Positions 1 to 52,555 are shown, numbered from the stretch's first letter. The stretch is 52,555 bases of DNA from Methanotrichaceae archaeon (GCA_963754945.1 CAVWIG010000008.1:1-52555); one strand, 5' to 3'. Program-made: numbers and translations. The notes: generated by a model from the sequence alone, not told the origin.

Positions 1-262
1 ATGTAACAACTGTCGCAAGAGCTGGAGTAAAATTCATGATGAATTCGGTCGTTTACAACCTGGAACAGTTGAAATATTTAGTGCATAAACAAACAGCCTA
101 GCGGAAGCTCTCTAAAAAAGCGCAAAAATTAGAAACAACAAGGTAAATTGAAATCTAATAAGCCAATTTAGGGGTGAAATATGCTAAAAAACCACTATAA
201 AGATTGAAAATATTAACGCAAGAATTTAAGGCTTCATTAACCAACACTAAATCGAAACCCTC
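1..262 (+). mobile_element. 3' 262 bp of IS5-family element (end of transposase plus right terminal inverted repeat)
   Basis: Matches 7772-8033 of the full IS copy and ends in ...ATCGAAACCCTC. Confidence 0.95.
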
Positions 263-1264
263 CTTAGACAATCCAGAAGTAAAAAGGTAGTGCGGTTCGC
301 TGTGGATTGGAGAGTTGCAGTAGCGAGCCACATTATTGACGATATCAAGAGTCACGAAGCGTTCAAGGTGGTCATAGATTGTGCTGAAAAGGCTGATTGG
401 AGAGTCAAGGAAGATCATAGGACTCAAAATAAGTTTTGGGATCTGGTTGAGGCGTTTGCCATCCTTCGATATAGGCAACGAGTCATAGACACGGAGGGCT
501 GGCTCCATGCCCTTGTCGAGGATTTCAATGAAGCCAAGACGGTTTTCATGAAAAGGAGATTCAGCCACAGGACACACTTGACAGGCGCTCAAACCAAGGT
601 AGTTAAATCCGTGATCGCCTTGCAGAATGAGCCGGATGGAGCGACCCAGGCCCGAATAGCTGAGGATTTAGGAATTTCTTTTAGGGCCGTGTCCAAGAGT
701 CTTAATGCAATAGAAGCTAACACCCGGTTTATCGTACATGAATTGAATCGAGGGACCAACTTCTATAGATGTACGGTTCCCGCTCTTGAGGTTCTCTATT
801 CGGAGGGGAATATTGTCTCCCTGCCTGATGACTACAAGGATTCTACTATGTTTCTACCGCCTTTCTACCATGTTTCTACTACTATTCTATCTAATAAAAT
901 CAATAACAATGGATGTAAAAGGGTAGAAAGAGTGTCTAATTTAAAAGAATGTAACAATGAACTTCCTAAAGTCGATGAAACATTGCTATGCTCGGAAAAT
1001 AGGGCGAAACAGGCGAATGAGCAAGCTGCGACGCAGGCCAAGGTAGAAACACAGGTAGAAACCGGCCCAAATCCTCGAAAATTCGCTCTTCCTCTCAAGG
1101 TGAAATTCCTGAAACCCTGTGGCCGGTTTGTAGGTGAAGATCTCCACATTCCGGGTGAGATTACAAACTACGGTCCTTATGAAATTGGCAATGTGGCAAC
1201 CCTTCCAAAGCTAAACGCAACAACGCTGATCATGAAAGGCGTGGCGGTGGAGGCTTCTGCGTGA
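263..1264 (+). pseudogene. C-terminal part of MCM-like AAA+ replication protein with wHTH and C-terminal GINS B-domain-like module; 5' part cut off by IS5
   Basis: Frame is open from the IS end (LRQSRSKKVVRF...); FAILRYRQR...EDFNEAK aligns with 50973-52293; HTH ATQARIAEDLGISFRAVSKSL; tail VKFLKP...YGPYEIGNVATLPKLNATTLIMKGVAVE. Confidence 0.65.
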
Positions 1265-1383
1265 AAAAAAGCAGTTCACGTTCACGAATCATAAAGAGGG
1301 ACGTGGTAAGAGTCTGGGATCTGCAGAAGAAAGCCTATCCAAAGGAAGCCTACGATGGGCACGACTTAGGCCAGGAGGCTTAG
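1261..1383 (+). CDS. Small basic protein (40 aa, not in ORF track), homolog of 50216-50353
   Basis: GTG start overlaps the upstream stop; LQKKAYPKEAYDG vs LQKKPYSKENYDG in element B. Confidence 0.6.
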   Translation: MKKSSSRSRIIKRDVVRVWDLQKKAYPKEAYDGHDLGQEA

Positions 1384-1875
1384 ATGGGCAAGAGAGGGCC
1401 TAAGTGTTCTATCTGCGAAAATCCGAAGGTTGAAGAAATCAATACGCAGATACTCGATAATCAGAAACTCGCGGATATCTCGCGGAAATTCGCGGTTTCT
1501 GCAGATGCCCTACAAAGGCACAGTGACAAGTGTATTGTCAGAGCCCTGGCGGCCACTCCAACCACAGCCGAGGTTATCACTGGTGATAAGCTATTAGATC
1601 AATTGAAAGAGGCCCGAGAAAAGGCCGTAGCTCTCTTGGACAAGGCCATCGATGCAGCCGACACTAAGGTCTATGGTGCCCCTTCTCAGTACCTCCGGGA
1701 GATTAGGGAACAAATCAAGTTATGGGCTGAGCTCGAGGGCCGGTTAGCATCACAGCCACAGATCACAATTATCAATAGCCCTGAATGGATCGAAATTCGA
1801 ACCCTAATCGTGAAGGCCCTAGACCCATTCCCCGAAGCTAAAGAGGCGGTAGTTCTTGCCATTCATGGGCGATGA
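1384..1875 (+). CDS. Putative terminase small subunit (CxxC plus HTH N-terminus, helical C-terminus)
   Basis: CSIC, HTH LADISRKFAVSADALQRH; directly upstream of the terminase ATPase. Confidence 0.6.
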   Translation: MGKRGPKCSICENPKVEEINTQILDNQKLADISRKFAVSADALQRHSDKCIVRALAATPTTAEVITGDKLLDQLKEAREKAVALLDKAIDAADTKVYGAPSQYLREIREQIKLWAELEGRLASQPQITIINSPEWIEIRTLIVKALDPFPEAKEAVVLAIHGR

Positions 1876-2626
1876 TCTCACATACTCCCTGGATCCGGTG
1901 GTGTGGTCTAGGGAAGTCCTGGGATATCATCCGGATTCCTGGCAAGCAAAAGTACTTCGAAGTCGTTCAAGAAACATCATTCTGAACTGTAGTCGACAGA
2001 GCGGCAAGAGTACAACATGCGCGGCTCTGGGTCTTCATGAGTCGGTCTATCGTCGTCCCTCTTTTGGTCTTGTAATCGCACCTTCACAGGATCAAAGCTC
2101 AGAGCTTATGATGAAGTTTGATGAGTTCCGGGGTGCTGTTGAGCTACCAAGCGATTACTTAGACACCGACACTAAGCTTGCGGTGAAATTCAAGAACGGC
2201 AACCGATTCATAGCTAGGCCAGGCTCGGAGAAGACCGCCAGATCCTTCAGCGCTGTAACTCTGCTTCTTGAAGATGAAGCTTCAAGGGTTCTCGACCCGC
2301 TCTATAACACAGTTCGCCCTATGCTCTCCGTGAGCAATGGCCGTCACATCTTGATGAGCACTCCCTTCGGCAAGCGAGGCCATTTTTTCCATATTTGGGA
2401 TGAGCAGCGGGATATGTGGGAGTGGTACGAAATTCTTGCCGAAATGTGCCCGCGCATATCGAGAGAGTTCTTAGAAGAAGAGAAAAGGACTAACCCCTGG
2501 TTTGAACAAGAATACCACTGTAAGTTCATGGAGACAACAGATAGCGTTTTCAGCTATGATCAGGTAGTGGGCGCAATCTCGGATGAGGTTGAACCGTTAA
2601 GCTTTGAGGTAGACGAATGGCATTAA
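1865..2626 (+). CDS. Terminase large subunit, ATPase domain only
   Basis: Q-motif WQ, Walker A SRQSGKST, Walker B LLLEDEA, motif III STP, FEQEYHC. Confidence 0.85.
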   Translation: MGDDLTYSLDPVVWSREVLGYHPDSWQAKVLRSRSRNIILNCSRQSGKSTTCAALGLHESVYRRPSFGLVIAPSQDQSSELMMKFDEFRGAVELPSDYLDTDTKLAVKFKNGNRFIARPGSEKTARSFSAVTLLLEDEASRVLDPLYNTVRPMLSVSNGRHILMSTPFGKRGHFFHIWDEQRDMWEWYEILAEMCPRISREFLEEEKRTNPWFEQEYHCKFMETTDSVFSYDQVVGAISDEVEPLSFEVDEWH

Positions 2627-3240
2627 GATTCTTTGTAGGGCTGGATTTGGGCCAGGCTAACGATTATACGGCTCTGTCCATCCTCGAGCGAGTGACCAGC
2701 AACAGCGAAAATGTCTATAATATCCGTCTCCTGGAGCGGATTAGAGGCGCTCCATATCCAGCCATCGTTAACAAGGTTGTAGGCATCATGGGATCTTCTG
2801 AGCTGGCGGACAGCGCCTCGCTTGCAGTGGACCAAACCGGAGTAGGTGCACCGGTTGTTGATCTCTTTAGAGCCTCGGGCCTTTACCCGATAGGCATTCT
2901 GATCCATGGAGGAGACCGTGTGACCAGCGAGGGCCTAACCTGGCGGGTTCCTAAGAGGGACCTCGTTGGTGTCTTGCAGGTGCTTCTGCAGAACAATAGG
3001 CTGAAGGTTGCTGCCAAACTGAAGCTAGGCCCGGTCTTGCAAAGGGAAATGCTCAATTTTAAAGTTAAGATAGATCCAGCAACGGCTCATGACAGCTACT
3101 CAGCCTGGCGCGAGGATGAACATGATGATTTGGTTCTCTCGGTTGCCTTGGCTGCCTGGTGGGGAGAACAAAATCCGCTGTACGAGTGGGTAGAACCGAA
3201 GCAAATTATGGGCTCGCCTGGGTATGTCGATCCATTTTAA
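2617..3240 (+). CDS. Terminase large subunit, RNase H-like nuclease domain as a separate ORF
   Basis: VGLDLG..D, VDQTGVG, HDDLVLS acidic motifs; own GAGGT RBS. Confidence 0.8.
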   Translation: MALRFFVGLDLGQANDYTALSILERVTSNSENVYNIRLLERIRGAPYPAIVNKVVGIMGSSELADSASLAVDQTGVGAPVVDLFRASGLYPIGILIHGGDRVTSEGLTWRVPKRDLVGVLQVLLQNNRLKVAAKLKLGPVLQREMLNFKVKIDPATAHDSYSAWREDEHDDLVLSVALAAWWGEQNPLYEWVEPKQIMGSPGYVDPF

Positions 3241-6748: not shown

Positions 6749-8033
6749 GAGAGTTTCGAAAAACTAATCAATCGAAATACTTATATACTATTAATACTAT
6801 AATATAATGCATGAGGACTCTCATTGATTTTGCCATTCGAGCAGAATATGCTCGAGTAAAAGCCCTCGGAGATGATCTATCCGAGATCGGATCGTTGATC
6901 AATTGGGAGCGTTTCAGATTTTTGGAACCATTGATATACAAAAATAAAACTAGCCGCGGAGGTCGTCCGAACATTGACATCGTGATTATGGTGAAAGCTC
7001 TCGTAATTCAGCATTGGTTTGGTCTAACAGATCCAGAACTGGAGCGACAGGTTGCGGATAGGATCTCTTTTCGTATTTTCCTTGGCACCACTGAAGTAAT
7101 TCCTGATTTCAGCACAGTTTGGCTATTCCGTGAACGTTTGATTAAGTGCGACGTATACGATGATCTTTGGAATGAGCTTCAAAGGCAGCTCGATGAGATG
7201 GGGTTTACTGTAAAGAATGGCACTATCCAGGATGCAACCTTCATAACTTCGGACCCAGGTCGGAAGAGGAACAAGAAAGACGAGCAAGGCGGGGACAAAA
7301 AGGAAGGTCAAGATTCCGAAGCCACCAGTACGAGCCTGAATCAGGAGTTTGATAAAGAGCTAATTGGTATTTCAAATAATATTATTGATGACAAGGCCAA
7401 ACCACAGAGACTCGAAGAAGAGCCAATAAATGAGGGAAGTTGGGCAAAAAAGGGTGTCAAATCCTTTTTCGGATATAAAGGTCATATCTCAATCGATACC
7501 AATTACCACCTTATCAGATATTTTGAGACTACAACTGCTTCTGTACACGATAGTCAGGTAGATCTTGGAATTGAAGGGCTACCACGTTACGCCGATAAGG
7601 GATATGATGGTGCAAAAACTCGAGGATATGATGCAGCCATGAAAAAAGCTACAAGAGGTCACAAGCTTGGAATCATAGATCTTCTGAGGAATAAGAGAAT
7701 CAGTAAAACGCGATCGCACATCGAAAGATGCTTCGCTGTTATGAAGCGGGGGCATAAGGGAGCACATGTTTATGTAACAACTGTCGCAAGAGCTGGAGTA
7801 AAATTCATGATGAATTCGGTCGTTTACAACCTGGAACAGTTGAAATATTTAGTGCATAAACAAACAGCCTAGCGGAAGCTCTCTAAAAAAGCGCAAAAAT
7901 TAGAAACAACAAGGTAAATTGAAATCTAATAAGCCAATTTAGGGGTGAAATATGCTAAAAAACCACTATAAAGATTGAAAATATTAACGCAAGAATTTAA
8001 GGCTTCATTAACCAACACTAAATCGAAACCCTC
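6749..8033 (+). mobile_element. Complete IS5-family insertion sequence (1285 bp)
   Basis: TIRs GAGAGTTTCGA / TCGAAACCCTC; 4 bp TSD TATG at 6745-6748 and 8034-8037. Confidence 0.95.
6811..7872 (+). CDS. IS5-family DDE transposase
   Basis: GRP, PDFST, QDAT, FGYKGH, HDS, ADKGY, RSHIERCF motifs. Confidence 0.95.
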   Translation: MRTLIDFAIRAEYARVKALGDDLSEIGSLINWERFRFLEPLIYKNKTSRGGRPNIDIVIMVKALVIQHWFGLTDPELERQVADRISFRIFLGTTEVIPDFSTVWLFRERLIKCDVYDDLWNELQRQLDEMGFTVKNGTIQDATFITSDPGRKRNKKDEQGGDKKEGQDSEATSTSLNQEFDKELIGISNNIIDDKAKPQRLEEEPINEGSWAKKGVKSFFGYKGHISIDTNYHLIRYFETTTASVHDSQVDLGIEGLPRYADKGYDGAKTRGYDAAMKKATRGHKLGIIDLLRNKRISKTRSHIERCFAVMKRGHKGAHVYVTTVARAGVKFMMNSVVYNLEQLKYLVHKQTA

Positions 8034-10753: not shown

Positions 10754-11689
10754 CTAAACCCCTAGCTGCGGCACGTGCGCCAGATAGCTTTCCCTCAGTC
10801 CCTCTCGCGTGACGTGATTGTAGCCATCCATAGCGTCCCTGACTACATCGCCTCTGATCAGTTTGATATGATCCCGACGCATGTCGGCATTTATTGCCTC
10901 AGTAGTCCAGCAATGTCTGCAGCAGTGAGGTGTGAAGTGATCCTCAAGATGTGGAGAGCTTGAGTCATGGACGCCAATGGCCTCAGCATATTGTTTAAAC
11001 TTCTTCCGAATGGCCTCAGGCGATAATCTGCTCCCGCGCCTGCTGAGAAATAAGGCCTTAATGTTCTTTTTATTCTTCGCGTTTCTCGTCGGAAGGTAGC
11101 CCTTCACGGCTCGGATAGTCTCATCGTCGAGTGGAATCTCTCGGTTGCTGCGTTTCGCTTTGTGCTTCAGAGTCATCCAGCCGTTCACCAGGTCTACATT
11201 ATCGAGATCCAGGCTGACCAGCTCGCCCAGGCGGATCCCTGTCTTGAAGAGTAGGACTGCAATAGCCTGGTCCCTAGGGTCCAAGATCCTGCTTATCAAA
11301 AGCCGGACCTGGTCAAGAGGGATTACCTTTCGGGTCTCGCTGTCGCTTCCTTCCTTGTATTCCTTCAGATAGAGCCTCTTGAACTTAGGGATCAGATTCT
11401 TTTCTACCAGGCCGCGGTCCTCGAGGTAGACGTACAGCAAGCCAAGGACTGTGAAGGCTCGCTTTATCGTTGCTCTTTTTACTTTCCTTTCTTCTTTGAG
11501 ATACCGGAGGTATCCTTCCAAGTCGTCCTGAGTGCAGCCCTCAAGGGAACTGCCCCTGGACTCTAGGAACTCAGAGAACTGTTTAGAATAGCAGACGTAA
11601 TCCCGGGCAGAAGCCATCCCACGCAGGTGGCAATAAGAGATAAACTTGTCCAGGGCGCTTTCTGCCTTCCTGTGAGTTATGTCGCGCAT
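10754..11689 (-). CDS. Tyrosine recombinase/integrase (XerC/D-like)
   Basis: TGIRLGEL (R), K, HCCRH (HxxR), RGD, terminal Y (DGYNH). Confidence 0.92.
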   Translation of the reverse strand: MRDITHRKAESALDKFISYCHLRGMASARDYVCYSKQFSEFLESRGSSLEGCTQDDLEGYLRYLKEERKVKRATIKRAFTVLGLLYVYLEDRGLVEKNLIPKFKRLYLKEYKEGSDSETRKVIPLDQVRLLISRILDPRDQAIAVLLFKTGIRLGELVSLDLDNVDLVNGWMTLKHKAKRSNREIPLDDETIRAVKGYLPTRNAKNKKNIKALFLSRRGSRLSPEAIRKKFKQYAEAIGVHDSSSPHLEDHFTPHCCRHCWTTEAINADMRRDHIKLIRGDVVRDAMDGYNHVTREGLRESYLAHVPQLGV

Positions 11690-12096
11690 GAAGCCTCGTT
11701 TTCCCTGTTGAAAAGACGGGATTGCTTAACGTTACCCCAATACTCTGAAAAGGCCAGGCCGTCATCATAAAGGCGGGTTACCAGGTCAAGATTCTCTAGG
11801 CCGCCTGCATTGTAATCGAGCCTGTCCAAGCCTTGATTATTGAGTTTGTAATACTCCTTAACCGTCGCGTCAAAGCATATCCTATCGCCTCTGTGTGGGT
11901 TGAATTCAGCGACATCAGGCGAAACTTCAGTCCAAATATGCTGGGACACTACTATCACGGTTCCAGTATGCAACGCCACATCAAAGAGGAGCATACAGGC
12001 CTTTATTCCTTCTGGAGTATATCGCAAGCCGAATTTGCCAACGGTCGCAGAGAAGCGATATTTTCCTCCTAAAAAAAGCTGAAGCTGTCGTCTCAT
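11677..12096 (-). CDS. Hypothetical protein (OB-fold-like), paralog of 42607-43029
   Basis: Near-identical N-terminus MRRQLQLFLGGKY. Confidence 0.75.
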   Translation of the reverse strand: MRRQLQLFLGGKYRFSATVGKFGLRYTPEGIKACMLLFDVALHTGTVIVVSQHIWTEVSPDVAEFNPHRGDRICFDATVKEYYKLNNQGLDRLDYNAGGLENLDLVTRLYDDGLAFSEYWGNVKQSRLFNRENEASCAT

Positions 12097-12097
12097 T

Positions 12098-12886
12098 CTA
12101 GCTCGCCTCCAGCTCTCTCAGATAGAATTCATCATAGAATCTCGCCAGGCCGATGCGCTTGTTCATCAGCGGTTCAAGCCTGGCCAGCATCTCTTCCGGC
12201 AGTACGACCTGCTGATCGCCTATGGTGGCGATTATGCACTCGTCATCCTGCTGGATAGCTGAGAGGAGACCAAATGCACGGTCGCAATGGAGGGGCTTGT
12301 GGGGCCGTTCGCTGTCGGAAAAAGGATTCAAGTTCTCCTGCCCGATCTCGCTCTGGCGGCACTCAATTACGAATTTCTCCTGCATGATTCCAATAAGTGA
12401 ATCGGCCCGCTCGATCCTGGTCTGAAGCTCTTTAAATTCACAATCTAAGGTCACATTACACTTGAGCATATCAGCTAGACCATCGCAAATGGCCTCGAAG
12501 CCAAAACACCGTACGGCTCCAAAGCAATCGATCTCCTGTTCGTCATTGAACTCGAAGCAAGGACAGCCTTGTCCCCAATGCTCGACCACGTGGGATCGTG
12601 TAAGCCAGCCTTCTTCGTATAGGGTTAGCCTGTTACTGAACCTGAAACCGCTGTCGTCACTCGTGATTGCCCTCTCGGAGTGGTCGATTATGTCTATCTT
12701 GTTGCGGTAATAGGGTGCTTGGCCTTCAGTATCCATGTAGCGCATGACCGACCACACCCTGGCCAGGATCTTCTCAAGCGCTTCAGCTTCTTTCTGCATG
12801 ACTTCGGTTTTGGCATCGCTGACTTTTTTGGTCAGAGGTATGTAGTTATCAAGCAGAGCGTTCAGCTCGGCCAAAGAGGGTGCCAT
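12098..12886 (-). CDS. Hypothetical protein; fusion of the homologs of 41799-42353 and 42350-42610
   Basis: GGAGGT RBS before MAPSLAELN; high identity to the element B copy. Confidence 0.75.
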   Translation of the reverse strand: MAPSLAELNALLDNYIPLTKKVSDAKTEVMQKEAEALEKILARVWSVMRYMDTEGQAPYYRNKIDIIDHSERAITSDDSGFRFSNRLTLYEEGWLTRSHVVEHWGQGCPCFEFNDEQEIDCFGAVRCFGFEAICDGLADMLKCNVTLDCEFKELQTRIERADSLIGIMQEKFVIECRQSEIGQENLNPFSDSERPHKPLHCDRAFGLLSAIQQDDECIIATIGDQQVVLPEEMLARLEPLMNKRIGLARFYDEFYLRELEAS

Positions 12887-12888
12887 GA

Positions 12889-13173
12889 TTATACCTCCAC
12901 CTCTTCCTTTGCTTCCTGGCCGGCGAAAGTCCATCCGGCCTCAATTAGCTCAAGAAGCTTATCCTGGCCGCTGCCTTTGTAGGTTGCTCGGATGGAATTG
13001 CCGGTCACAGCTTGTATGGTTGCATTGTCTTTGACCAGGGCCCTGATAGCTTCAATGTGCTGTTTTGGATCTTTGACAACCATGAAGATCTCGATAATAG
13101 CGGGCTGAGTCGAAGTTGAACCAGCATCGCAGTGTTCTTCATCCCTGCAGAAGTACTCAATCTTCTTGATCAT
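12889..13173 (-). CDS. Hypothetical protein, present in element A only
   Basis: GGAGG RBS; tightly packed in the operon. Confidence 0.6.
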   Translation of the reverse strand: MIKKIEYFCRDEEHCDAGSTSTQPAIIEIFMVVKDPKQHIEAIRALVKDNATIQAVTGNSIRATYKGSGQDKLLELIEAGWTFAGQEAKEEVEV

Positions 13174-17525: not shown

Positions 17526-18614
17526 ATGGTAGAGCTTGCGGGACAAGTAGTAACCGCAGTAGATATCGGTTTGTTTGCTATATTCTTGATAGTATTGGCT
17601 GCACCTTTCAAGGTGAAGCTAGCTGAGAAGAACCTTGAGGCATTTCTGTTCCTTATGGGTGTTGTAGCCGTCACTGTAACCAGTCACTGGCGCATGGACC
17701 TAATCACAATGGCCGGGGAAGAGCCAATTCTGAAAGGCATAGTTCCAGCGGTACTGATTGCAGGCATCATATTCTTCTACGGAAAGAGCGCCTTCAAGAG
17801 CGTCATGAACGGCCTGATAAAATCAATTCCCATGCCCGTTCTTGTCTTCTTGATTGTATTCATCTGTGGAATGATCTCCAGCGTCGTTACCGCCATCATC
17901 ACATCATTGTTCCTGGTGGAGATCGTCAACCTGTTGCCCATGGAGCGCATGAACAAGATCAACCTGGTCATACTTGCCTGTTTCTCGATCGGCCTGGGAG
18001 CAGTTCTCACACCCTTGGGTGAGCCTCTGTCAACCATCGCCATTACCAAGTTGGCCGGTGAGCCGTACCATGCAACATTCTGGTACCTCGCAGACCAGTT
18101 AGGCGTACTGGTCGTTCTTGGTTGTGCCATATGCGCGGCCTTCGCTGCATTCTATGTCGGCAAAGCCGGCAAAGCAGAGGTCAAGGAAATCACTGAAGAG
18201 GGAGGCCTCCGAGAGGTCATCGTCAGAGCAGTTAAGGTCTACGTATTCGTGGCCGCTCTGTTCCTCCTTGGCGACGGAATGAACGTTCTAATCGACAAAT
18301 ACTTCACCCATGTCCCATCAATGGTTCTTTACTGGGTGAACATAGTCTCGGCCATCCTGGATAACGCCACGCTGACGGCAGCTGAGTTATCTCCAGCCAT
18401 GAGCCAGGCACAGATCAACGCTGCCCTGATGGGTCTGCTCATCTTCGGTGGCTGTTTGATCCCCGGAAATATCCCCAACATCATATCCGCAGGCAAGCTG
18501 GGCATCACCAGCGGCGAATATGCCAAGCTGGGAGTTCCCTTTGGACTTGTGCTAGGCGCGTTCTTCTTCGTGCTGATCTACTTCCTGCACTTCAGCCCGA
18601 CTCTGGGACTTTAA
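17526..18614 (+). CDS. DUF1646-family multi-pass membrane transporter, copy 1
   Basis: EKNLEAFLF, LTPLGEPLST, DNATLTAAE, GNIPNII. Confidence 0.85.
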   Translation: MVELAGQVVTAVDIGLFAIFLIVLAAPFKVKLAEKNLEAFLFLMGVVAVTVTSHWRMDLITMAGEEPILKGIVPAVLIAGIIFFYGKSAFKSVMNGLIKSIPMPVLVFLIVFICGMISSVVTAIITSLFLVEIVNLLPMERMNKINLVILACFSIGLGAVLTPLGEPLSTIAITKLAGEPYHATFWYLADQLGVLVVLGCAICAAFAAFYVGKAGKAEVKEITEEGGLREVIVRAVKVYVFVAALFLLGDGMNVLIDKYFTHVPSMVLYWVNIVSAILDNATLTAAELSPAMSQAQINAALMGLLIFGGCLIPGNIPNIISAGKLGITSGEYAKLGVPFGLVLGAFFFVLIYFLHFSPTLGL

Positions 18615-18871: not shown

Positions 18872-19960
18872 ATGGTAGAGATTGCGGGACAAGTAGTAAC
18901 CGCAGTAGATGTAGGTTTGTTTGCTATATTCTTGATAGTATTGGCTGCACCTTTCAAGGTGAAGCTAGCAGAGAAGAACCTTGAGGCATTTCTGTTCGTT
19001 ATGGGTGTTGTAGCCGTCACAGTAACCAGCCATTGGCGCATGGAACTAGTTGAATTGGCCGCGAAAGAGCCAATACTGAAAGGCATAGTTCCGGCGGTCC
19101 TGATTGCAGGCATCATATTCTTCTACGGAAAGGGTGCCTTCAAAAGCGTCATGAATGGCCTGATAAAATCAATTCCCATGCCCGTTCTGGTCTTCTTGAT
19201 TGTATTCATCTGTGGAATGATCTCCAGCGTCATCACCGCCATCATCACATCCCTGTTCTTGGTGGAGATCGTCAACCTGATGCCTATGGAGCGCGTGAAC
19301 AAGATCAACCTAGTGATTCTCGCTTGTTTCTCGATCGGCTTGGGAGCTGTGCTCACTCCTCTTGGTGAACCTCTGTCCACCATTGCCATAACCAAGCTGC
19401 AGGGAGAGCCATATCATGCAACTTTCTGGTATCTCGCAGACCAGATAGGAATACTAGTCTTGCTGGGTTGTGCCATATGTGCAGCATTCGCAGCATTCTA
19501 TGTGGGCAAAGCTGGCAAGGCAGAAGTCAAGGAGATCGCCGATGAGGGCGGCTTGAGAGATGTTATCGTCAGAGCAGTTAAGGTCTATGTATTCGTGGCC
19601 GCTCTGTTCCTCCTGGGCGACGGAATGAACGTTCTCATTGACAAGTACTTCACCCACATCCCATCCGTGGTGCTGTACTGGGTGAATATGGTCTCGGCCA
19701 TCCTGGATAACGCTACCTTGACCGCAGCGGAGTTGTCTCCAGCCATGGACCAGGGTCAGATCAACGCTGCTCTGATGGGGCTGCTCATCTTCGGCGGAAT
19801 GCTGATCCCAGGCAACATCCCTAACATCATATCCGCAGGCAAGCTGGGCATCACTAGCGGCGAGTATGCCAAGCTGGGAGTTCCCTTTGGGCTTGTGCTA
19901 GGCGCGTTTTTCTTCGTCGTGATCTACGTCCTGCACTTCACCCCGAGACTAGGACTCTAA
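18872..19960 (+). CDS. DUF1646-family membrane transporter, copy 2 (tandem paralog)
   Basis: Same length as copy 1 and very similar. Confidence 0.85.
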   Translation: MVEIAGQVVTAVDVGLFAIFLIVLAAPFKVKLAEKNLEAFLFVMGVVAVTVTSHWRMELVELAAKEPILKGIVPAVLIAGIIFFYGKGAFKSVMNGLIKSIPMPVLVFLIVFICGMISSVITAIITSLFLVEIVNLMPMERVNKINLVILACFSIGLGAVLTPLGEPLSTIAITKLQGEPYHATFWYLADQIGILVLLGCAICAAFAAFYVGKAGKAEVKEIADEGGLRDVIVRAVKVYVFVAALFLLGDGMNVLIDKYFTHIPSVVLYWVNMVSAILDNATLTAAELSPAMDQGQINAALMGLLIFGGMLIPGNIPNIISAGKLGITSGEYAKLGVPFGLVLGAFFFVVIYVLHFTPRLGL

Positions 19961-24712: not shown

Positions 24713-24753
24713 CAGCCAACTTTATCAGTTTGTACGCTCTTATACCCCTTTCG

Positions 24754-26289
24754 ATGCTGGAGATAGTTCAGAGGTTTGCCGAGGAAGGCTACCAGATAGA
24801 ACCGGAGGCCCTTGAGATGATCCGGTCCTACAGTGGGGCAAGAGAGGAACTGGTGGGGCAAATCCTGAGCAACATAGACGGCTCCGTCATTGTCGTCCGG
24901 GCAGGACATGTATCCGACATCCTTTCTCCCTCTGAAGGCCTGGCTAGTCTTGTCCGTAATTCTGAAGCTCCTTATGGCATTGTTGGACCATCTTGGGCCA
25001 GAGTTGGTTTAGAGGTTGTGGGGGGGTTGCATGGGTCCTTGGCAGGGGATCTTGGCTCGCCTTTGGTAAAGGAACCATGTCATCCTGGAATCGAAGTGAA
25101 TTCTGACATAACTGGCAACTCCACCTGTGTGGGTGAATACGAGGACTTTGTTAGGTACTTCCGCGATAGATACTCGAAGATCAGAGAGATTCTCTCCAGG
25201 AGGCTGAACGCCCGTCCCATTGAAAGCCTGGGGAAGAGCATGGTGGGCCGTGAGGTCTCATTGATCGGAATGGTCATGGATGTTCGGACAACAGCCAAAG
25301 GCCACCGCGTTCTGGAGCTCGAGGACCCAACGGGAATGGTGGTCGCCATAATCCAGAAGGACTCTGAGCTGTTCGAGCAGTCCAGCTATATAGTTCCCGA
25401 TGAGGTCTTGGGTATTACGGCCGTTTCGGACGGAAATGGAAGGGTCTTCGTCAAATCGCTCCTTTGGCCGGACATGCCCAATCAGAGTAAGTCTCTAGAG
25501 GCTGGAACCGGCTTTACAGTGCTTACATCCGACCTCCACGTGGGCAGCAAGTATTTTATGGAAGATGCTTGGGAGCGGTTTGTGGCTTGGATAAACGGCG
25601 ATGTAGAAGACCCTTCGGGTTTGGCATATCAGGTGAAGTATATCGTGATCGCAGGGGATTTAGTAGACGGCATAGGGATATACCCTGGACAAGAAAGTGA
25701 CCTAGCAATTAAGGACATCTACGAACAATACGAAGCTGCGGCCCAATGCCTGAACAGCATCAGGAAGGATGTCGAGATGGTGCTCTCTCCAGGGAATCAC
25801 GATATTGTGAGACAGGCGGAGCCCCAGCCTGCTCTTCCCACGTCGGTCCAGAGGTTCTTCTCCGGGCCGATACACTTTGTTGGCAACCCGGCGTGGGTAA
25901 CCCTCGAAGGAGCCTCTCTTCTGGTCTATCACGGCAGGAGCATAGACGATCTGGTCATGAGAGTTCCTGGAATGTCGTACAGCGAACCGGAAAAGGCCAT
26001 GGTGGAGATGCTTAGGAAACGGCACCTCTCCCCAATATACGGAGGCAGAGTCTCCATTGCTCCAGAGCATCAGGACCATTACGTAATTCACAAACCTCCC
26101 AATATCCTTCACTGCGGCCATGTTCATACTGTCGGAATAGCTAGGTACAAGGGCGTAGCAGCAATAAACAGCGGAACCTGGCAGTCCCAGACCGAATTTC
26201 AGAAGAAGATGAACATACAGCCTACTCCTGCAGCGGTTCCCATAATCGATATGGCAACCATGAAAGTGAAGAAACTCCTTTTCGCTTAG
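24754..26289 (+). CDS. DNA polymerase D small (proofreading) subunit DP1
   Basis: OB fold LEDPTG; SDLHVGS, GDLVDGIG, PGNHD, HGRSIDD, GHVH. Confidence 0.95.
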   Translation: MLEIVQRFAEEGYQIEPEALEMIRSYSGAREELVGQILSNIDGSVIVVRAGHVSDILSPSEGLASLVRNSEAPYGIVGPSWARVGLEVVGGLHGSLAGDLGSPLVKEPCHPGIEVNSDITGNSTCVGEYEDFVRYFRDRYSKIREILSRRLNARPIESLGKSMVGREVSLIGMVMDVRTTAKGHRVLELEDPTGMVVAIIQKDSELFEQSSYIVPDEVLGITAVSDGNGRVFVKSLLWPDMPNQSKSLEAGTGFTVLTSDLHVGSKYFMEDAWERFVAWINGDVEDPSGLAYQVKYIVIAGDLVDGIGIYPGQESDLAIKDIYEQYEAAAQCLNSIRKDVEMVLSPGNHDIVRQAEPQPALPTSVQRFFSGPIHFVGNPAWVTLEGASLLVYHGRSIDDLVMRVPGMSYSEPEKAMVEMLRKRHLSPIYGGRVSIAPEHQDHYVIHKPPNILHCGHVHTVGIARYKGVAAINSGTWQSQTEFQKKMNIQPTPAAVPIIDMATMKVKKLLFA

Positions 26290-45229: not shown

Positions 45230-48031
45230 TCAACTACCGCCACCATAGTGTGCGCTGCCTCTTTTCACGACTTCCTCGACTGCTCTTGCGATTTCGAACG
45301 GGTTCAATTTACTTTCCACAATCTCTTCGAACAATCGTCTGATCGTGCTTTCGTCAAGCTTTTCAGTAGCAGCGCCAGATATGGATATATCTCCTATGTT
45401 AATGTCTACTTTGATCGGTGACGACTGAGACGACGATCCACCAGATCTATCTATTGGAGGCATAACAGCCACAGGAGAATCGATCAGGGACTCTAGAATC
45501 TCTTGTAATCTAGATGAGCTGGCTATCTCGGCAGGAATGATAGGTTCCCCTTCGTGACCAATCAGCCCCCCCGAACTTGTGATTAGCCCGCCTTTTTGAG
45601 CAGGGACGTAATTGGCCTGCTGGTCTGGCCCAAGATAGTTATCGTATGTCTTTTTGTCTATGATATGTCCATCGATCTTGCTCTTGTACTGTGTTATTGG
45701 AGTTGGCGATGAGGGAGTTGGAGAAGATGGTGTTGTATCAGTTGTTGGTGTTGGTGTTGGGGTTCCTTTGAGATTGTCGATTAGCCCCATTGCAGCCGAG
45801 TATCCATATTTAAAGAGTGCAACTGGACCCTGATCGACCGATGCCGACGCTGGGCCGACTTGGTTTTTGTCCCACGCATTGAATTGTTGTTCCTGATTTT
45901 GGAGTTCGTTGTTAACCCCCTGGCTTAAACCAGCGCGCGCATCACTGAGAACATTTCTTGGGGCAGGTGTTGATGGCGTTGGAGTGTCTGGTTTTTTTGC
46001 GTCTGGGTGGTTCTTATAATAATCATCCCATGCTCGTTTCATCAGGTCAGGGTTTTGATTGTCTGGCAGATGATTATATGTAGCTGCTCCGATTGATTTG
46101 TCATCTGGCCCAACGATTATAAGCTGATCGCCTTCGCCAGGCGCTGTTTTATATCCTGGCGGCATCTGCGTTGTATCCAGGTTCAACGCTGGCGTTGTAC
46201 TTCCCGTAGACTGCGATTTGGCAATGTCGGCGTTTGTCTGATATCCTTTGCCTTGAGACCAGTTGCCAAGCCGCTCAAGCTCATCAGTTATCGGTTTCGC
46301 AATTCCCAGAATTGCACCAACTATGTCATCCCAGACACCCTTGATCCAAGTCACAAAGTCGGTATATACGGTCAGGAGTTCTCTAATCAGATAGTAAATC
46401 AGCTTGGTGAAGGAGTCGATCGGATCCAGGTGAGCCTCTATTAAAGGTAGGCCAGTTATCAATGCCCCTATAGGCCCGCCTATGGCAAATCCCAGCACCA
46501 CGTCGAGCGCATCATGGTCTTTTAGGAACTTGTAGAATCCGTCGGCCTTCTCGAAGGCACCGCCAACGACCTCTTCGAAGACGGTTACTCCCTGGACAGC
46601 TCCATTAAGAAAATGACCGCCCAGATCGACTGCTCCACTGCTTAGCAGGCCTACTAGCATCTGGACGTCGTTGATGAGATCTTTGCCCATGCTAGATTGG
46701 CTGAAGACTGTCCAGGCGTTTGAGAAGGCATGAGTCTTCTGTTCGACCTCATACAGGCCCACTCCTAGAAGGACCAATCCTGCCACAAGAGCAATTATTG
46801 GAAGGAAAGCGGCATATTCTGCCACTGCCATGGACCCGAACGCGCCTTCTGCCGCCAGTGCTGCATCACCAGTGTAGAACAGGCCCGTAGCCAATGTGTA
46901 AGCTGTACCTCCGACCGCAATCATTGGAAAGACAAGACCGTCAACAAGTCCTATGAGAGGCCCAACAATTCCTGCCAGAACGAGTGCAACTGCTGCTACG
47001 CCTAGCAATTGAGGTGCGCCTGGGATAGCATTTATCACATCAACGAGACCACCAACTGCATCCGTAAGTGCTAATAGGTAAGGCAGAGCACCGTCCTCGA
47101 TCGAGTCTGTCAGATCCTCAATTCGAGCCTCAAACATTTGGACTTTCTGTGTGGCTGACAGGTTAAAGTAATCAACGTCTGTCGTCTTTTTGATCAACTG
47201 ATCCTGAACAGCCTGAAGAAGAATTGCCTGGCGAATTTGTTGATCTGTGAGTCCGATAAGCTCTCCTTTATTTTTTAGCTCTCTCTCTGCGGCGGATTGA
47301 TCTTTTTCGGTTGGAGCCGAAATGCCGAGATTCGCCAAGACCATTCCGGCTCGACCCATGCTCCCAAGCACTGCGCCTCCTTGGGATGCGGCCTTGCTGG
47401 GCTCCATGTTAGAAAGACGTTGAGAATACTGTGCCATCAACGCGGTTATATCAGGCGCTCCAACTTCGCCCAGTCTTGCCGCGTTCGAAAACTGGAACTT
47501 CTCTGCCGCTTCCTGAAACGCCATTGCTTGCTCAGTACCAACGCCATGGAATCTCAACTGGATTAGGGCCTGGGCTCTTTCATCGTACGAAATTTGTGGA
47601 GGGCGCGATGCCAACCATTGTTGAATACCTGCCTGCTCTGCCGTGGTGAACGACTCGGCGATAGCGTCCTGGATTCGCTGATTCTCAAAAACGTGATTAG
47701 CGCCAAGGGCTATAATAGCACCCGCAGCAACTTTGGTCGCCGATATAGAGTCGACCATGTTGCCGATAGACTCTGAGACACCTTCAGCCGTGCCCTTCAA
47801 GCTCTCAAACATGTCACTTAGATACCCAGTAATCGATTGAGTCTCCTGTTCGGTTTCTCCGAGTTGATCAACTGAGGCCACCAGAGCATCAACGCCTCCG
47901 GTGTCCGCGTCTATGTTGATCTCCCACGCATTTTCTACTAACTGTTGGGCCAGGTCTAACGTGGACTGGAGCTCGTCTTTAGCTCCATTATCGTTGAACA
48001 AAGTGCGAATGATGAAGTCACGTATTGCCAT
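45230..48031 (-). CDS. Tape-measure-like protein (933 aa)
   Basis: Helical N-half, central hydrophobic segments, Pro/Thr linkers, C-terminal AQKGGLI...GHEGEPIIP motif typical of TMP ends. Confidence 0.7.
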   Translation of the reverse strand: MAIRDFIIRTLFNDNGAKDELQSTLDLAQQLVENAWEINIDADTGGVDALVASVDQLGETEQETQSITGYLSDMFESLKGTAEGVSESIGNMVDSISATKVAAGAIIALGANHVFENQRIQDAIAESFTTAEQAGIQQWLASRPPQISYDERAQALIQLRFHGVGTEQAMAFQEAAEKFQFSNAARLGEVGAPDITALMAQYSQRLSNMEPSKAASQGGAVLGSMGRAGMVLANLGISAPTEKDQSAAERELKNKGELIGLTDQQIRQAILLQAVQDQLIKKTTDVDYFNLSATQKVQMFEARIEDLTDSIEDGALPYLLALTDAVGGLVDVINAIPGAPQLLGVAAVALVLAGIVGPLIGLVDGLVFPMIAVGGTAYTLATGLFYTGDAALAAEGAFGSMAVAEYAAFLPIIALVAGLVLLGVGLYEVEQKTHAFSNAWTVFSQSSMGKDLINDVQMLVGLLSSGAVDLGGHFLNGAVQGVTVFEEVVGGAFEKADGFYKFLKDHDALDVVLGFAIGGPIGALITGLPLIEAHLDPIDSFTKLIYYLIRELLTVYTDFVTWIKGVWDDIVGAILGIAKPITDELERLGNWSQGKGYQTNADIAKSQSTGSTTPALNLDTTQMPPGYKTAPGEGDQLIIVGPDDKSIGAATYNHLPDNQNPDLMKRAWDDYYKNHPDAKKPDTPTPSTPAPRNVLSDARAGLSQGVNNELQNQEQQFNAWDKNQVGPASASVDQGPVALFKYGYSAAMGLIDNLKGTPTPTPTTDTTPSSPTPSSPTPITQYKSKIDGHIIDKKTYDNYLGPDQQANYVPAQKGGLITSSGGLIGHEGEPIIPAEIASSSRLQEILESLIDSPVAVMPPIDRSGGSSSQSSPIKVDINIGDISISGAATEKLDESTIRRLFEEIVESKLNPFEIARAVEEVVKRGSAHYGGGS

Positions 48032-48401: not shown

Positions 48402-49184
48402 TTATATCATCTCCAAAGTCAATTGTTTTTGTTGTTCAACATGCTCAACTTCTAATTGCAACGACCCTTTCCTTGCCTTGTTTGATTCTCGTTTATTCCA
48501 GATCGTTGCTTGCTCGTCGACGTAGATCCAGCCGCGTCTCCGACAGAGATCTTCCATCTCCTGCCGGTGACCATAGATTACGAACTTGATAGCGTCCGTA
48601 CCTGCTTGTGATTCTGCTAAAGAAGCCTGATCCATTATGCTCTGTAGCGAACTGCTCTTCTCGATCCTGGTCGCATATGCTTTCCAGCCCAAAGGAACGC
48701 CCAGAAGATTGATGTCCCACCACTTCGGAGCTACGTTGAGATCGACCCAGCATCGCATTCCACGCTCTTGCCAATACCTTGACAAGAACCGCTTTTTGCC
48801 TATCTGCTCCAGAGCTCTCCAACGAGGCTGGGAGTTCGAAGTCGAGAAGTTGACCTCCACAAACGAAGGAGCTCCACTTTGCCATACTCGATCAGGCTTA
48901 TTCCAGACCGCTGCAAAGCGATAATCGTCCGTGTAGAAGTGGATAGTTCTGCCCCGAAAATCCCCAGTTCGGCGAACAGATCCCCAGGCCAGAGGATAAT
49001 CAAAGAAATCCCCCTGCCTGTCTACGAGGAGATCAGCAACCCCCTCGGTGTTTGATGCTGGAAATATACAATCAGGAACTGCGTCCATTGACATTGACAT
49101 AGACCTCTCAAAATAAGGAGACCGGACAAGGCTCTTCAAGTTCGAACTTTCAAATACTCGGCCCAACTCCTTCGCAATGCTCAC
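48402..49184 (-). CDS. DUF4417-like phage protein
   Basis: HFYTDDYRF...W..P, NFS, SRYWQERG; start uncertain (49184 or ~49088). Confidence 0.7.
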   Translation of the reverse strand: MSIAKELGRVFESSNLKSLVRSPYFERSMSMSMDAVPDCIFPASNTEGVADLLVDRQGDFFDYPLAWGSVRRTGDFRGRTIHFYTDDYRFAAVWNKPDRVWQSGAPSFVEVNFSTSNSQPRWRALEQIGKKRFLSRYWQERGMRCWVDLNVAPKWWDINLLGVPLGWKAYATRIEKSSSLQSIMDQASLAESQAGTDAIKFVIYGHRQEMEDLCRRRGWIYVDEQATIWNKRESNKARKGSLQLEVEHVEQQKQLTLEMI

Positions 49185-49364
49185 GTCTCTCCTCCATTTT
49201 TGCAAACGCCTTCTCTAGCATCTCTTTAAATGCCGGGTCCCATCGGACGTTAGGATCGCGGCCATGGGCACGCCAGAGGGCGTAATCAGCAAGATCATCA
49301 ATAATAGGGGCACTATTTCTAGCGCAGCTACGCGGCGGTTGAGTGCAACAGCAACAGCACTCAT
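49150..49364 (-). pseudogene. Small protein, N-terminal LNRRVAALE heptad, probably frameshifted near 49317
   Basis: MSAVAVALNRRVAALE then NSAPIIDDLADYALW... in a shifted frame. Confidence 0.45.
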
Positions 49365-50215: not shown

Positions 50216-50353
50216 TCACCGCCAGCGCTTTTTGAATTCGGGTTGATCCCCGGCTCCCTCGGAGCCGTCGTAGTTTTCCTTCGAGTAGGGTTTCTTCTGT
50301 AGGGTTCGAACTCTTCGCCTTGCGATTTGTAAATGTAAGTTGCCTTTTTTCAT
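50216..50353 (-). CDS. 45 aa basic protein, homolog of 1261-1383 (not in ORF track)
   Basis: MKKGNLHLQIARRRVRTLQKKPYSKENYDG. Confidence 0.55.
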   Translation of the reverse strand: MKKGNLHLQIARRRVRTLQKKPYSKENYDGSEGAGDQPEFKKRWR

Positions 50354-50455: not shown

Positions 50456-50791
50456 TCAGACATCCTTACCGCCTCCGCATGCAAGCCAGTTGCCCTTATT
50501 GTCCCGAGGCAGATTTGCCAAGAACTCATCTATCCCTTTTGTTCGATCGATTGGTGGCACTGGCTGAACTGGACGCTCGAACAAGGGTGTCAAAAAGGCA
50601 ATCTCCTCCGAGGTCAGATTTTCAAAAGGCTGATCGCCCGCAAGCGCGTGTTTGATGAAGATTTCGGTCATTTGGTCGAGCTCTGCCCAGCTGAGACCAG
50701 CCAGAAATGCCTTGCAATCGTCGCTGATGGTCTCATGTGAGCCGATCGACAAAGTGACAAGCCGCCTCTCGAAGGCCTTAAGGCTCTTCAT
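50456..50791 (-). CDS. Hypothetical protein with N-terminal FERRLVTL heptad
   Basis: GGAGGT RBS, ATGA overlap. Confidence 0.6.
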   Translation of the reverse strand: MKSLKAFERRLVTLSIGSHETISDDCKAFLAGLSWAELDQMTEIFIKHALAGDQPFENLTSEEIAFLTPLFERPVQPVPPIDRTKGIDEFLANLPRDNKGNWLACGGGKDV

Positions 50792-50976
50792 GTTTTGACC
50801 TCCACAGGGGTGACAACTCCATGTTTTGCTAGAATCTTAGCCAACCAATACGGAATTTCGGCTATATCGCCTCGTGCAATGTCTTTATTTTCCAAAAAAC
50901 CACACTCTATAGCAGCTGAGATTATCTCGTCTGAGGATAGCCCCTCTATAAGCTTCTCGAAATCGGAGGGATTCAT
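50788..50976 (-). CDS. Small protein ending in a GINS B-domain-like segment
   Basis: GDIAEIPYWLAKILAKHGVV. Confidence 0.5.
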   Translation of the reverse strand: MNPSDFEKLIEGLSSDEIISAAIECGFLENKDIARGDIAEIPYWLAKILAKHGVVTPVEVKT

Positions 50977-52293
50977 GCTGCGACCAGCTCCACAATACCG
51001 CGCTTGAGTAAGTCTTCAGCCATCCATCTCTGTAACATGACGGTATCGCCGGCCTCGTAAAGATGGTCTGCATACTTCTTAGGATTGTCCGGATCTGCGA
51101 TTTGAGTCCTGTAATCCTTCAAGAATCGAACCTTTACGAGGTCAGTGGGTTGGGGCTTCTTGGCGTGCTCCTCGGTTTTGCTGGCTAACTCTTCGCCTCG
51201 TTGGTTCGCTAACCTAGAACCGCTATCCTCTGCCTTCTTCGTGGGATAGTTCGCGCTTGGTGCACTGGAAGTTCGCACGGAAGAATCCACACCTGGAGGC
51301 TCTAAGTTCGCAAGTTCGCAAGATTTCGCTGGGTGAGAGAGAGAAAAAGAATTTTCCTTATCCAGATGAGAGGGGTGTACGTTGTTCGTACCTCTCTCTC
51401 TTATATTATTATATTCTACGAACTTACGAACTACATCTTTACCGAACTCGTTTTTGACCTGCGAACTATCCGCGAACTCAGACGAACTATCCGAACAATG
51501 CCGCTTGATATTGGTTTCGTCAGTATCCAAAGAAACCGCTTTACCGTATGCTTTCAGAATATCGTAGTCCTCGGAGAGCCGATAGACTTTCTTTTTCTTG
51601 CTGATCTTAGTATCCCTGTCAACCCATTTCAGTGTTCCTTCGTCTTCCTCTGTCAATGCAGCGCATTTGTGCAACAGTCCATATTTGGCCTGACCATCTC
51701 GACTCCGGCCATTCAAGATATCAGATAATGCACCTTTGGAGAACCCTGTCTTCTCCATTATCATTTCTCGGGTAGCCTCGCCGTGCAAGTCCTTGATAGC
51801 CTGGAGGGTTCGAAGTTCACCAGGGGTGTACTTGGTGTCGCTGTGACCTTTTATGGCATTGAAAAAAGTTTCAGCATCCTTGTAATCTTCATAGCTGGCT
51901 ATCACAGCGCCGTTCTTGCCCTTCTCCCTGGTCTGGTGTCTCCAGATTGCAAAACTGGACACCAAGTCAGCAAAGATTGTAGCTCCTCGGGGATCTCCGT
52001 AGAACTTAATGTGATCAGCAAATGGAATCACCACATCAACGAATACCTGTTTTAACAAGTAGACTATGGCCCTACAAACTTCAATCTCATGAGGGTCGAA
52101 GGTAGCAGCACCGCTTTTCCTCTGCTCGAAAATGAAGTCTATGATTTCCTGGGTGTGCTTTGGGTCCTCTGTGATGTCAATCCTAAGTAGCCTGTCCCTT
52201 ACCTGTTCGTCTGTTTGGGCGTCGGCTGTGGTTATCCAAAATATGATACGGGGAGCTGTCTTGAACTGTTGAATTTCTTGGTCTACAACTACA
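50973..52293 (-). pseudogene. C-terminal part of MCM-like AAA+ replication protein with wHTH and GINS B-domain-like tail; 5' part cut off by IS5
   Basis: ITTAD...DEQVRDR (sensor-1/Arg-finger-like), PRG, ASYEDY; HTH; VKVRFLKDY...YEAGDTVMLQRWMAEDLLKRGIVELV. The ORF-track start 52352 lies inside the IS. Confidence 0.7.
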
Positions 52294-52555
52294 GAGGGTT
52301 TCGATTTAGTGTTGGTTAATGAAGCCTTAAATTCTTGCGTTAATATTTTCAATCTTTATAGTGGTTTTTTAGCATATTTCACCCCTAAATTGGCTTATTA
52401 GATTTCAATTTACCTTGTTGTTTCTAATTTTTGCGCTTTTTTAGAGAGCTTCCGCTAGGCTGTTTGTTTATGCACTAAATATTTCAACTGTTCCAGGTTG
52501 TAAACGACCGAATTCATCATGAATTTTACTCCAGCTCTTGCGACAGTTGTTACAT
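52294..52555 (-). mobile_element. 3' 262 bp of the same IS5 element, inverted
   Basis: Reverse complement of 1-262. Confidence 0.95.

Follow-up and report, generated by a model that had tools for sequence, protein, structure and literature searches.

The two ends of a contig from a Methanothrix-family methanogen each carry the remnant of a Rep gene that belonged to a virus-like mobile element, and the C-terminal tail of one of them, gene A, is a GINS B-domain of the Gins51C type, in identity as well as in fold. For the intact relatives of these Rep proteins, we consider the odds somewhat in favor of the tail being a hook that docks GAN (the Cdc45/RecJ homologue) and/or PolD of the host, bypassing MCM-GINS, and the arrangement suggests that an element could in this way connect its own helicase with the replication machinery of the host. 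The domain itself is a known one in a new context, and the architecture was already visible in precomputed Pfam tables.

The window (the whole stretch of 52,555 nucleotides that was analyzed) is one complete contig (G000:C8) of an assembly of 2.97 Mb in 54 contigs with a completeness of 87.7%, and the host is archaeal, with an MCM gene of a 704-aa frame (329 bits). It begins within an insertion sequence (IS), the right end of which, i.e., the last 262 bp of ~1285 bp, occupies positions 1..262 (plus strand), and it finishes within the right end of another copy at 52294..52555 (minus strand). A complete reference copy encoding a 353-aa DDE transposase (Pfam DUF772 and DDE_Tnp_1) is found at 6749..8033 (plus strand), and positions 1-262 match positions 7772-8033, as well as over 40 further copies in the genome, at 100% identity. 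Across the assembly, more than 40 copies were recovered at 99.5–100% identity, several of them at contig ends, and many of the contig breaks are caused by these highly identical copies of ~1285 bp. The IS shows imperfect terminal inverted repeats and apparent 4-bp target duplications, and two of its copies interrupt the two different Rep genes at comparable points, lying the same way round relative to the gene.

Gene A (263..1264, plus strand) is the 3' remnant of a member of the PF27228-type Rep NTPase family. The IS end directly precedes nucleotide 263, which is exactly where homology to the relatives begins; the in-frame translation from this nucleotide (...LRQSRSKKVVRFAVDW) aligns with the relative P0001 from residue ~221 on, and the copy begins after both the Walker A and the Walker B motif. 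The ORF at 290-1264 (plus strand) encodes a protein of 324 aa with the C-terminus ...LKVKFLKPCGRFVGEDLHIPGEITNYGPYEIGNVATLPKLNATTLIMKGVAVEASA, and the interval 1060-1264 corresponds to its last 68 codons (a codon boundary falls at 1058, and 1060 is out of frame). A probable HTH or winged-helix DNA-binding region was located at 620..739 (plus strand), weakly, by a Pfam HTH_11 match to residues 111-150 that stays under the cut-off (E 0.0058), and the family profile of A gave weak matches to MarR-type regulators (E ~0.1). At the other end of the contig, gene B (50973..52293, minus strand) was delimited by alignment to the 578-aa relative P0060 as the 3' remnant of a second Rep gene, ~30% identical to A (32% over 99 residues, E 2e-9). 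Its listed ORF (50973-52352, minus strand, 459 aa, C-terminus ...VKVRFLKDYRTQIADPDNPKKYADHLYEAGDTVMLQRWMAEDLLKRGIVELVAA) opens with 20 codons of IS sequence, and the native part begins at 52293, corresponding to residue 173 of P0060, just past the Walker A and Walker B motifs of that protein.

Because the insertions removed the part with both Walker motifs, A and B cannot be NTPases or helicases. The fusion of a helicase, a winged HTH and a GINS B-domain that was proposed in the preliminary description thus holds for full-length relatives but not for the genes of the window, from which the Walker A and B region has been cut off by the IS. A tblastn search with three full-length relatives as queries found none of the missing N-terminal halves in the assembly, and these are either unassembled or deleted; the four bases abutting the IS at A or B, read as target duplications, ended the left-end flank of no IS copy. 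Since both genes are truncated and their missing halves are absent from the assembly, the local copies are probably dead, and any hook function is lost in this genome unless fragments consisting of HTH and hook are still expressed.

The B-domain of A, of the Gins51C type, lies at 1097..1246 (plus strand), as delimited by a Pfam match and by the predicted fold. Pfam Gins51_C (PF22090) matched residues 270-319 with an E-value of 3e-10 and 40.2 bits (cut-off 27), and in a PF22090 scan of the whole genome this site came first (40.8 bits), followed by a 62-aa ORF downstream of B, with no further match at E up to 1. An AF2 model of the last 68 residues, built with an alignment of 34 relatives, reached a mean pLDDT of 87.9 and showed the order strand-strand-strand-strand-helix-strand. 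When it was compared with the PDB using Foldseek, the top four matches were all C-terminal chains of Thermococcus kodakarensis Gins51 (5ghr_D, 5ghs_D, 3anw_A, and 5ghr_B; E 0.013–0.024, rmsd 1.5–1.7 Å), with target-normalized TM-scores of 0.28–0.85, of which 0.81 and 0.85 belong to the domain-only 5ghr chains, and eukaryotic Psf1 was next in the ranking. A Foldseek-independent structure search of 48,161 chains, for which the tool's trust mark is Z 8, again placed 3anw_A first (Z 9.6, rmsd 1.6 over 58 residues) and 5ghr_B second (Z 9.1, rmsd 1.1 over 53 residues), while the lower matches comprised B-domains of Gins23, Psf2, and Sld5 (Z 6.7–7.2), phage gpFI-C (6.4), the C-terminus of PriS (1zt2_A, 6.0) and N-domains of L9 (~5).

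The sequence comparisons pointed in the same direction. With the whole-family profile of A, T. kodakarensis Gins51 gave the only significant matches in the PDB (E 3.2e-5 and 4.4e-5), and a family profile was required for this, as a single-sequence phmmer search of the A tail against the PDB returned only spurious leucine-rich-repeat matches; searches of PHROGs and NCBIfam gave nothing useful. The identity between tails of the A type and the B-domain of Gins51 from a genome of the same genus is 39–46%. The preliminary description had made its reading of a GINS B-domain-like C-terminal module depend on a structural match to the GINS B-domain fold; such a match was found, Pfam and profile matches agree with it, and the end sequences quoted there for A, B, and the next ORF are all three present. 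No Pfam match to a helical GINS A-domain was obtained in A, where only Gins51_C and the weak HTH were detected, and none to PF05916 in the genome, a model that is weak on archaea (above the cut-off in only 1 of 14 control genomes).

The tail of B (50976..51143, minus strand) was delimited by hhalign, AF2, and fold searches, and we take it to be a divergent GINS B-domain, mainly on profile evidence. Pfam had no match in B, and Gins51_C was likewise found in none of 80 listed relatives of B; a region search with the B tail in a set of 5.8 billion proteins recovered the query itself only. When a 6-sequence B-type profile was aligned with the 35-sequence A-type profile, hhalign gave a probability of 94% and an E-value of 1.4e-7 over 55 columns, and the top matches of B alone in a phmmer search of the PDB, though sub-significant, were GINS B-domains, namely 3anw_B (E 0.49) and residues 141-194 of human PSF1 (E 0.85). 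The AF2 model, which was built with an alignment of only six rows, has a pLDDT of 80.3 and the strand-helix order of A. Its top Foldseek matches were human PSF1, gpFI-C, Sulfolobus solfataricus GINS, and T. kodakarensis Gins51 (E 0.02–0.07), and the Foldseek-independent search was headed by 9moj_D (Z 7.1), 3anw_A (6.4), human Sld5 (6.2) and 5ghr_B (6.1); seven of the eight top rows of that search were GINS or PriS at Z 5.7–7.1, under the trust mark of 8, with PriS 1zt2_A (Z 5.7) ranked under the Gins51 chains, as was the case for A.

Downstream of B, the 62-aa ORF (50788..50976, minus strand; contains GDIAEIPYWLAKIL) has half of a B-domain in its C-terminal half according to profile alignment. 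Its start codon overlaps the stop codon of B (ATGA), which suggests that the translation of the two is coupled. Taken alone, the ORF gave sub-threshold Pfam matches to PSF3_N (E 0.0016) and Gins51_C (E 0.0047). Five homologues of 60–62 aa and 68–76% identity were found, and the ORF is therefore a real small gene. The resulting 6-member family aligned with the B-type profile at a probability of 94.2% (E 1.2e-7) over only 30 columns, which correspond to strand 4, the helix, and strand 5, and with the A-type profile at 31.7%, where the best of 50 column-shuffled controls against the same profile reached 3.6%. On these alignments, the ORF appears to carry only the second half of a B-domain, i.e., a half-domain.

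The Rep family, for which the PF27228 label (MTBMA_p00010_2nd) was taken from precomputed tables, could be characterized from its longer members. Protein A has 58 longer relatives of 568–922 aa (top identity 67%); PF27228 is precomputed for all 58 and for B itself, PF22090 is additionally precomputed in 34 of the 58, and with our own domain HMM the tail was found in 39. The relatives possess the motifs GEKGHGKT (Walker A) and IIFSDD (Walker B), and the full-length order is an optional primase-polymerase, a P-loop NTPase, the HTH, a long linker and the B-domain, with ~90 residues of low complexity between the HTH region and the tail. In some relatives, the N-terminal part is a primase-polymerase of the Prim-Pol or NrS-1 type, and P0001 (585 aa) has the tail without a Pfam-detectable primase domain. 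Among the relatives of B, the B-domain tail is a minority feature (8 of 149 listed, 6 of these 8 having been used to build the HMM): where P0066, P0068, and P0076 have the B-domain, other close relatives have a zinc ribbon (P0060), a winged-helix-like segment (P0061) or another module (P0064). Proteins that are 58–73% identical to B in the core thus end in quite different C-terminal tails, which indicates that tail modules are shuffled among them; this fits an adaptor role of the tail without pointing to the partner. A search for loci with the family pattern returned one locus on a genome contig and two on viral contigs, and a tblastn search of the family had no match in phages and three distant matches in plasmids.

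Next to the A remnant, the rest of the element (1384..3240, plus strand) encodes a 163-aa Cys-rich protein and a terminase large subunit (Terminase_6N, E 2.4e-10 in Pfam) that is divided between two overlapping ORFs, the N-terminal ATPase part at 1856-2626 and a 207-aa part at 2617-3240 (both plus strand); the split may reflect a frameshift, or it may be programmed. Two further ORFs follow the terminase before host genes start at ~4011, and host genes occupy the stretch between elements A and B. Element B consists of the Rep remnant, small ORFs, a DUF4417 protein (48402-49205, minus strand) and then a 933-aa ORF with Pro/Thr-rich stretches and no Pfam match (45230-48031, minus strand), whose length and composition alone suggest a possible tape-measure-like protein; the interval between the Rep of element B and this ORF contains neither a terminase nor a capsid gene. 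Two small basic ORFs, one of 40 aa in element A (1261-1383, plus strand) and one of 45 aa in element B (50216-50353, minus strand), have the motif ...LQKK.Y.KE.YDG... in common, suggesting a conserved small protein of the two elements. Elsewhere in the window, a tyrosine integrase (Phage_integrase and SAM-like N-domains) and two adjacent ORFs without a Pfam match at 10754-12934 (minus strand) may represent a third integrated element, and two 362-aa DUF1646 paralogues form a tandem pair at 17526-18614 and 18872-19960 (plus strand). On another contig of the assembly (G000:C18:163292-166057), a Prim-Pol protein that is 37% identical to the N-terminus of P0052 and has a matching zinc-ribbon end likely marks a further element.

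The association of Gins51_C with other proteins was examined in 31 related genomes. Chromosomal Gins51 proteins of the Methanothrix family (frames of ~190–220 aa), encoded beside a presumed priS, scored weakly on PF22090 (18–24 bits), and long ORFs in two genomes (G010 and G013) had strong matches. One of these long ORFs, of 937 aa (L040), combines a D5_N + DUF5906 helicase with a Gins51_C tail; an 867-aa ORF (L039) with such a tail and no other Pfam match has an N-terminal region in common with L040, and an 897-aa ORF (L103), which comes from another family of the phylum sample and also lacks other Pfam matches, is unrelated to L040 outside the tail. Stand-alone Gins51_C ORFs of 70 aa and 141 aa were present as well, one of which adjoins VirB4/HerA-like and TraG-like genes, RadC, and DUF6610. 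A 7.4-kb viral contig (L106) carries a Rep with a Gins51_C tail followed by a terminase, as in element A, and a 56-kb viral contig (L107) has a tail-less family member beside a virus-encoded PCNA, a single case. In two same-genus genomes (G001 and G002; loci L037 and L038), the gene directly upstream of chromosomal gins51 is presumably priS, given the known priS-gins operon, and its C-terminus also ends with a B-domain-like motif; a locus of this priS-gins51 type is absent from the window's own assembly.

The proposal that the tail recruits host proteins draws on the Gins51C complexes of T. kodakarensis. There, structural work describes Gins51C as a mobile hook whose fourth strand binds the DHH domain of GAN, a binding abolished by D163A and by M164A/I166A (PMC5100581), and a further study reports that it also binds the N-terminal domain of DP1, a contact abolished by V148D and V170D, and that a ternary DP1N-Gins51C-GAN crystal structure exists (PMC9023282). 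We mapped the contact positions by a profile alignment of the A family to T. kodakarensis Gins51, with D163-M164-A165-I166-I167-P168 as the reference contact strand. In the 35-sequence A-type alignment, the equivalents of this strand are D in 30, V in 30, A in 31, T/S in 32, and P in all 35 sequences, and those of the DP1N positions are F in 33 and I/L/V in 31; the conservation at these positions is no proof of a common partner, because they are also determinants of the fold. The contact strand reads N-V-A-T-L-P in copy A, with N in place of the GAN-contacting D that 30 of the 35 relatives keep, and D-T-V-M-L-Q in copy B, which lacks the conserved P.

Candidate partners are encoded by the host. 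Its GAN orthologue has 483 aa (E 1.6e-76 to 5ghr_A), and DP1, the small subunit of PolD, lies within the window at 24730..26289 (plus strand; Pfam DNA_pol_E_B, Metallophos, and OB fold; E 1.9e-91 to DP1 chains of the PDB). Neither Pfam nor the PDB sequence search recognized a DP1 N-terminal domain in the host protein, whose first ~60 residues look helical. Gins51 and PriS of the host were not found in the 87.7%-complete assembly and are present in same-genus genomes. When the host GAN (alignment of 27 rows) and the B-domain of A (35 rows) were put through complex prediction, both runs ended with no answer (score 0.00), which counts neither for nor against binding.

From the published Gins51C complexes and the conservation of the contact strand, we infer that the hook of an intact element would recruit host proteins. 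Such an element would encode a Rep helicase with its own Gins51C-type hook, tethered by the linker, and the hook would dock host GAN and/or PolD (via DP1) straight onto the element's helicase, so that MCM-GINS would be bypassed. In a wider reading, which we advance tentatively and rate a little below even, elements of PolD-containing archaea have repeatedly captured the Gins51C hook, either fused to unrelated helicases of the PF27228 type, the D5 type and others or alone, and use it to couple PolD and GAN or to titrate them. If this is true, a helicase would be coupled to host PolD and GAN without MCM/GINS, or the factors would be drawn off the host fork, and the zinc-ribbon, winged-helix-like, and B-domain tails would represent alternative adaptors to different parts of the host replisome.

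Other roles of the tail have to be weighed against recruitment. It is possible, though we think it unlikely, that the tail competes as a decoy with host Gins51C for GAN or PolD, diverting or stopping host replication or blocking rival elements; no replisome would then be built on the element's helicase, and truncated fragments of HTH and hook, as well as stand-alone B-domain proteins, would act in this manner. The 70-aa and 141-aa stand-alone Gins51_C ORFs of other genomes, one of them within a conjugation-like gene cluster, are in line with it, as are the conserved half-domain ORF apparently coupled to B and the fact that frames of 324 and 439 aa have stayed open in the truncated copies, with start codons at or inside the IS end. 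However, the identity of ~100% among the IS copies marks the insertions as recent, and intact frames of A and B may persist without selection; moreover, the domain is covalently joined to a helicase in 34–39 of the 58 relatives, a situation that recruitment fits better.

We regard it as distinctly improbable that the tail acts in cis, for the primase-polymerase activity of the element itself, and does not contact host proteins. PriS 1zt2_A does occur among the fold matches (Z 6.0 for A and 5.7 for B), a relationship between PriS and GINS domains has been published (PMC2861644), and some relatives carry N-terminal Prim-Pol domains. The matches to Gins51C are, however, clearly stronger (E 3e-10; Z 9.6 vs. 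6.0), relatives of the P0001 type (585 aa) have the tail and no Pfam-detectable primase, and the tail sits behind a long linker, distant from any primase part. Very improbable, too, is a generic beta-alpha module comparable to the L9 N-domain, engaged in nucleic-acid binding or self-association and without a link to the replisome: the fold matches do include L9 N-domains and phage gpFI-C (Z 4–6.4), and all Z-scores of the B tail stay under the trust mark of 8, but at the sequence level both Pfam and the PDB single out Gins51, and GINS domains ranked above L9 in all four fold searches. The chance that the resemblance is an accident or a product of sequence composition is negligible: B alone and the 62-aa ORF alone have only sub-threshold single-sequence matches, but the match of A at E 3e-10 exceeds the curated cut-off, two structure searches concur independently of each other, and the profile-profile E-values are ~1e-7 with shuffled controls at no more than 3.6%; for A, the Pfam match above the cut-off and the fold matches rule it out.

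The reading bears on the question of how an archaeal virus or plasmid without a DNA polymerase gains access to the replicase of its host. A helicase carrying a domain whose T. kodakarensis counterpart is an established binder of GAN and PolD would provide a concrete mechanism, testable by mutation, and a hook-bearing helicase would be a natural minimal system in which helicase-polymerase coupling could be studied. No description of a GINS B-domain on a mobile-element helicase was found in open-access PubMed Central and bioRxiv, a check that included passages of Raymann et al. 2014 and of the Haloferax review, and the word "GINS" has zero occurrences in the searched portions of Kazlauskas et al. 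2016 and 2018. Likewise, a term search returned no plasmid, virus, or mobile-element wording from the portions of PMC2861644 that it covered.

Among known systems, Gins51C of T. kodakarensis (3ANW, 5GHR, 5GHS, and 7E15) is the one with which the element tail has the fold, the strand-helix order, and a significant sequence match in common, together with a tether by a flexible linker, comparable to the mobile hook of GINS as described in PMC5100581 and PMC9023282, and, in most A-type sequences, the D-hydrophobic-A-x-hydrophobic-P strand that in Gins51C pairs with GAN. In contrast to Gins51, the tail of the element is joined to a Rep NTPase and an HTH instead of a helical GINS A-domain, the element protein is devoid of the tetramer-forming part, and the binding of partners by the tail is putative. 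The C-terminal domain of PriS from archaeal primase offers a second parallel, being a B-domain fold that occurs outside GINS in a replication enzyme (Swiatek and MacNeill 2010, PMC2861644), but its similarity to the tail is weaker than that of Gins51C, and PriS is a core protein of the host rather than the tail of a helicase. The Rep of pMTBMA4/pMTB1, from which PF27228 originates, is a distant homologue of the family in the NTPase-HTH core (22–23% identity over residues 55-412 of P0002) and differs in that these plasmid proteins of ~800 aa have no Gins51_C domain. Finally, D5-type primase-helicases (D5_N + DUF5906) have a helicase core unrelated to that of A and B, yet they resemble the Rep family in their role as replicative helicases of elements, and the Methanothrix-family member L040 likewise ends in a Gins51_C tail.
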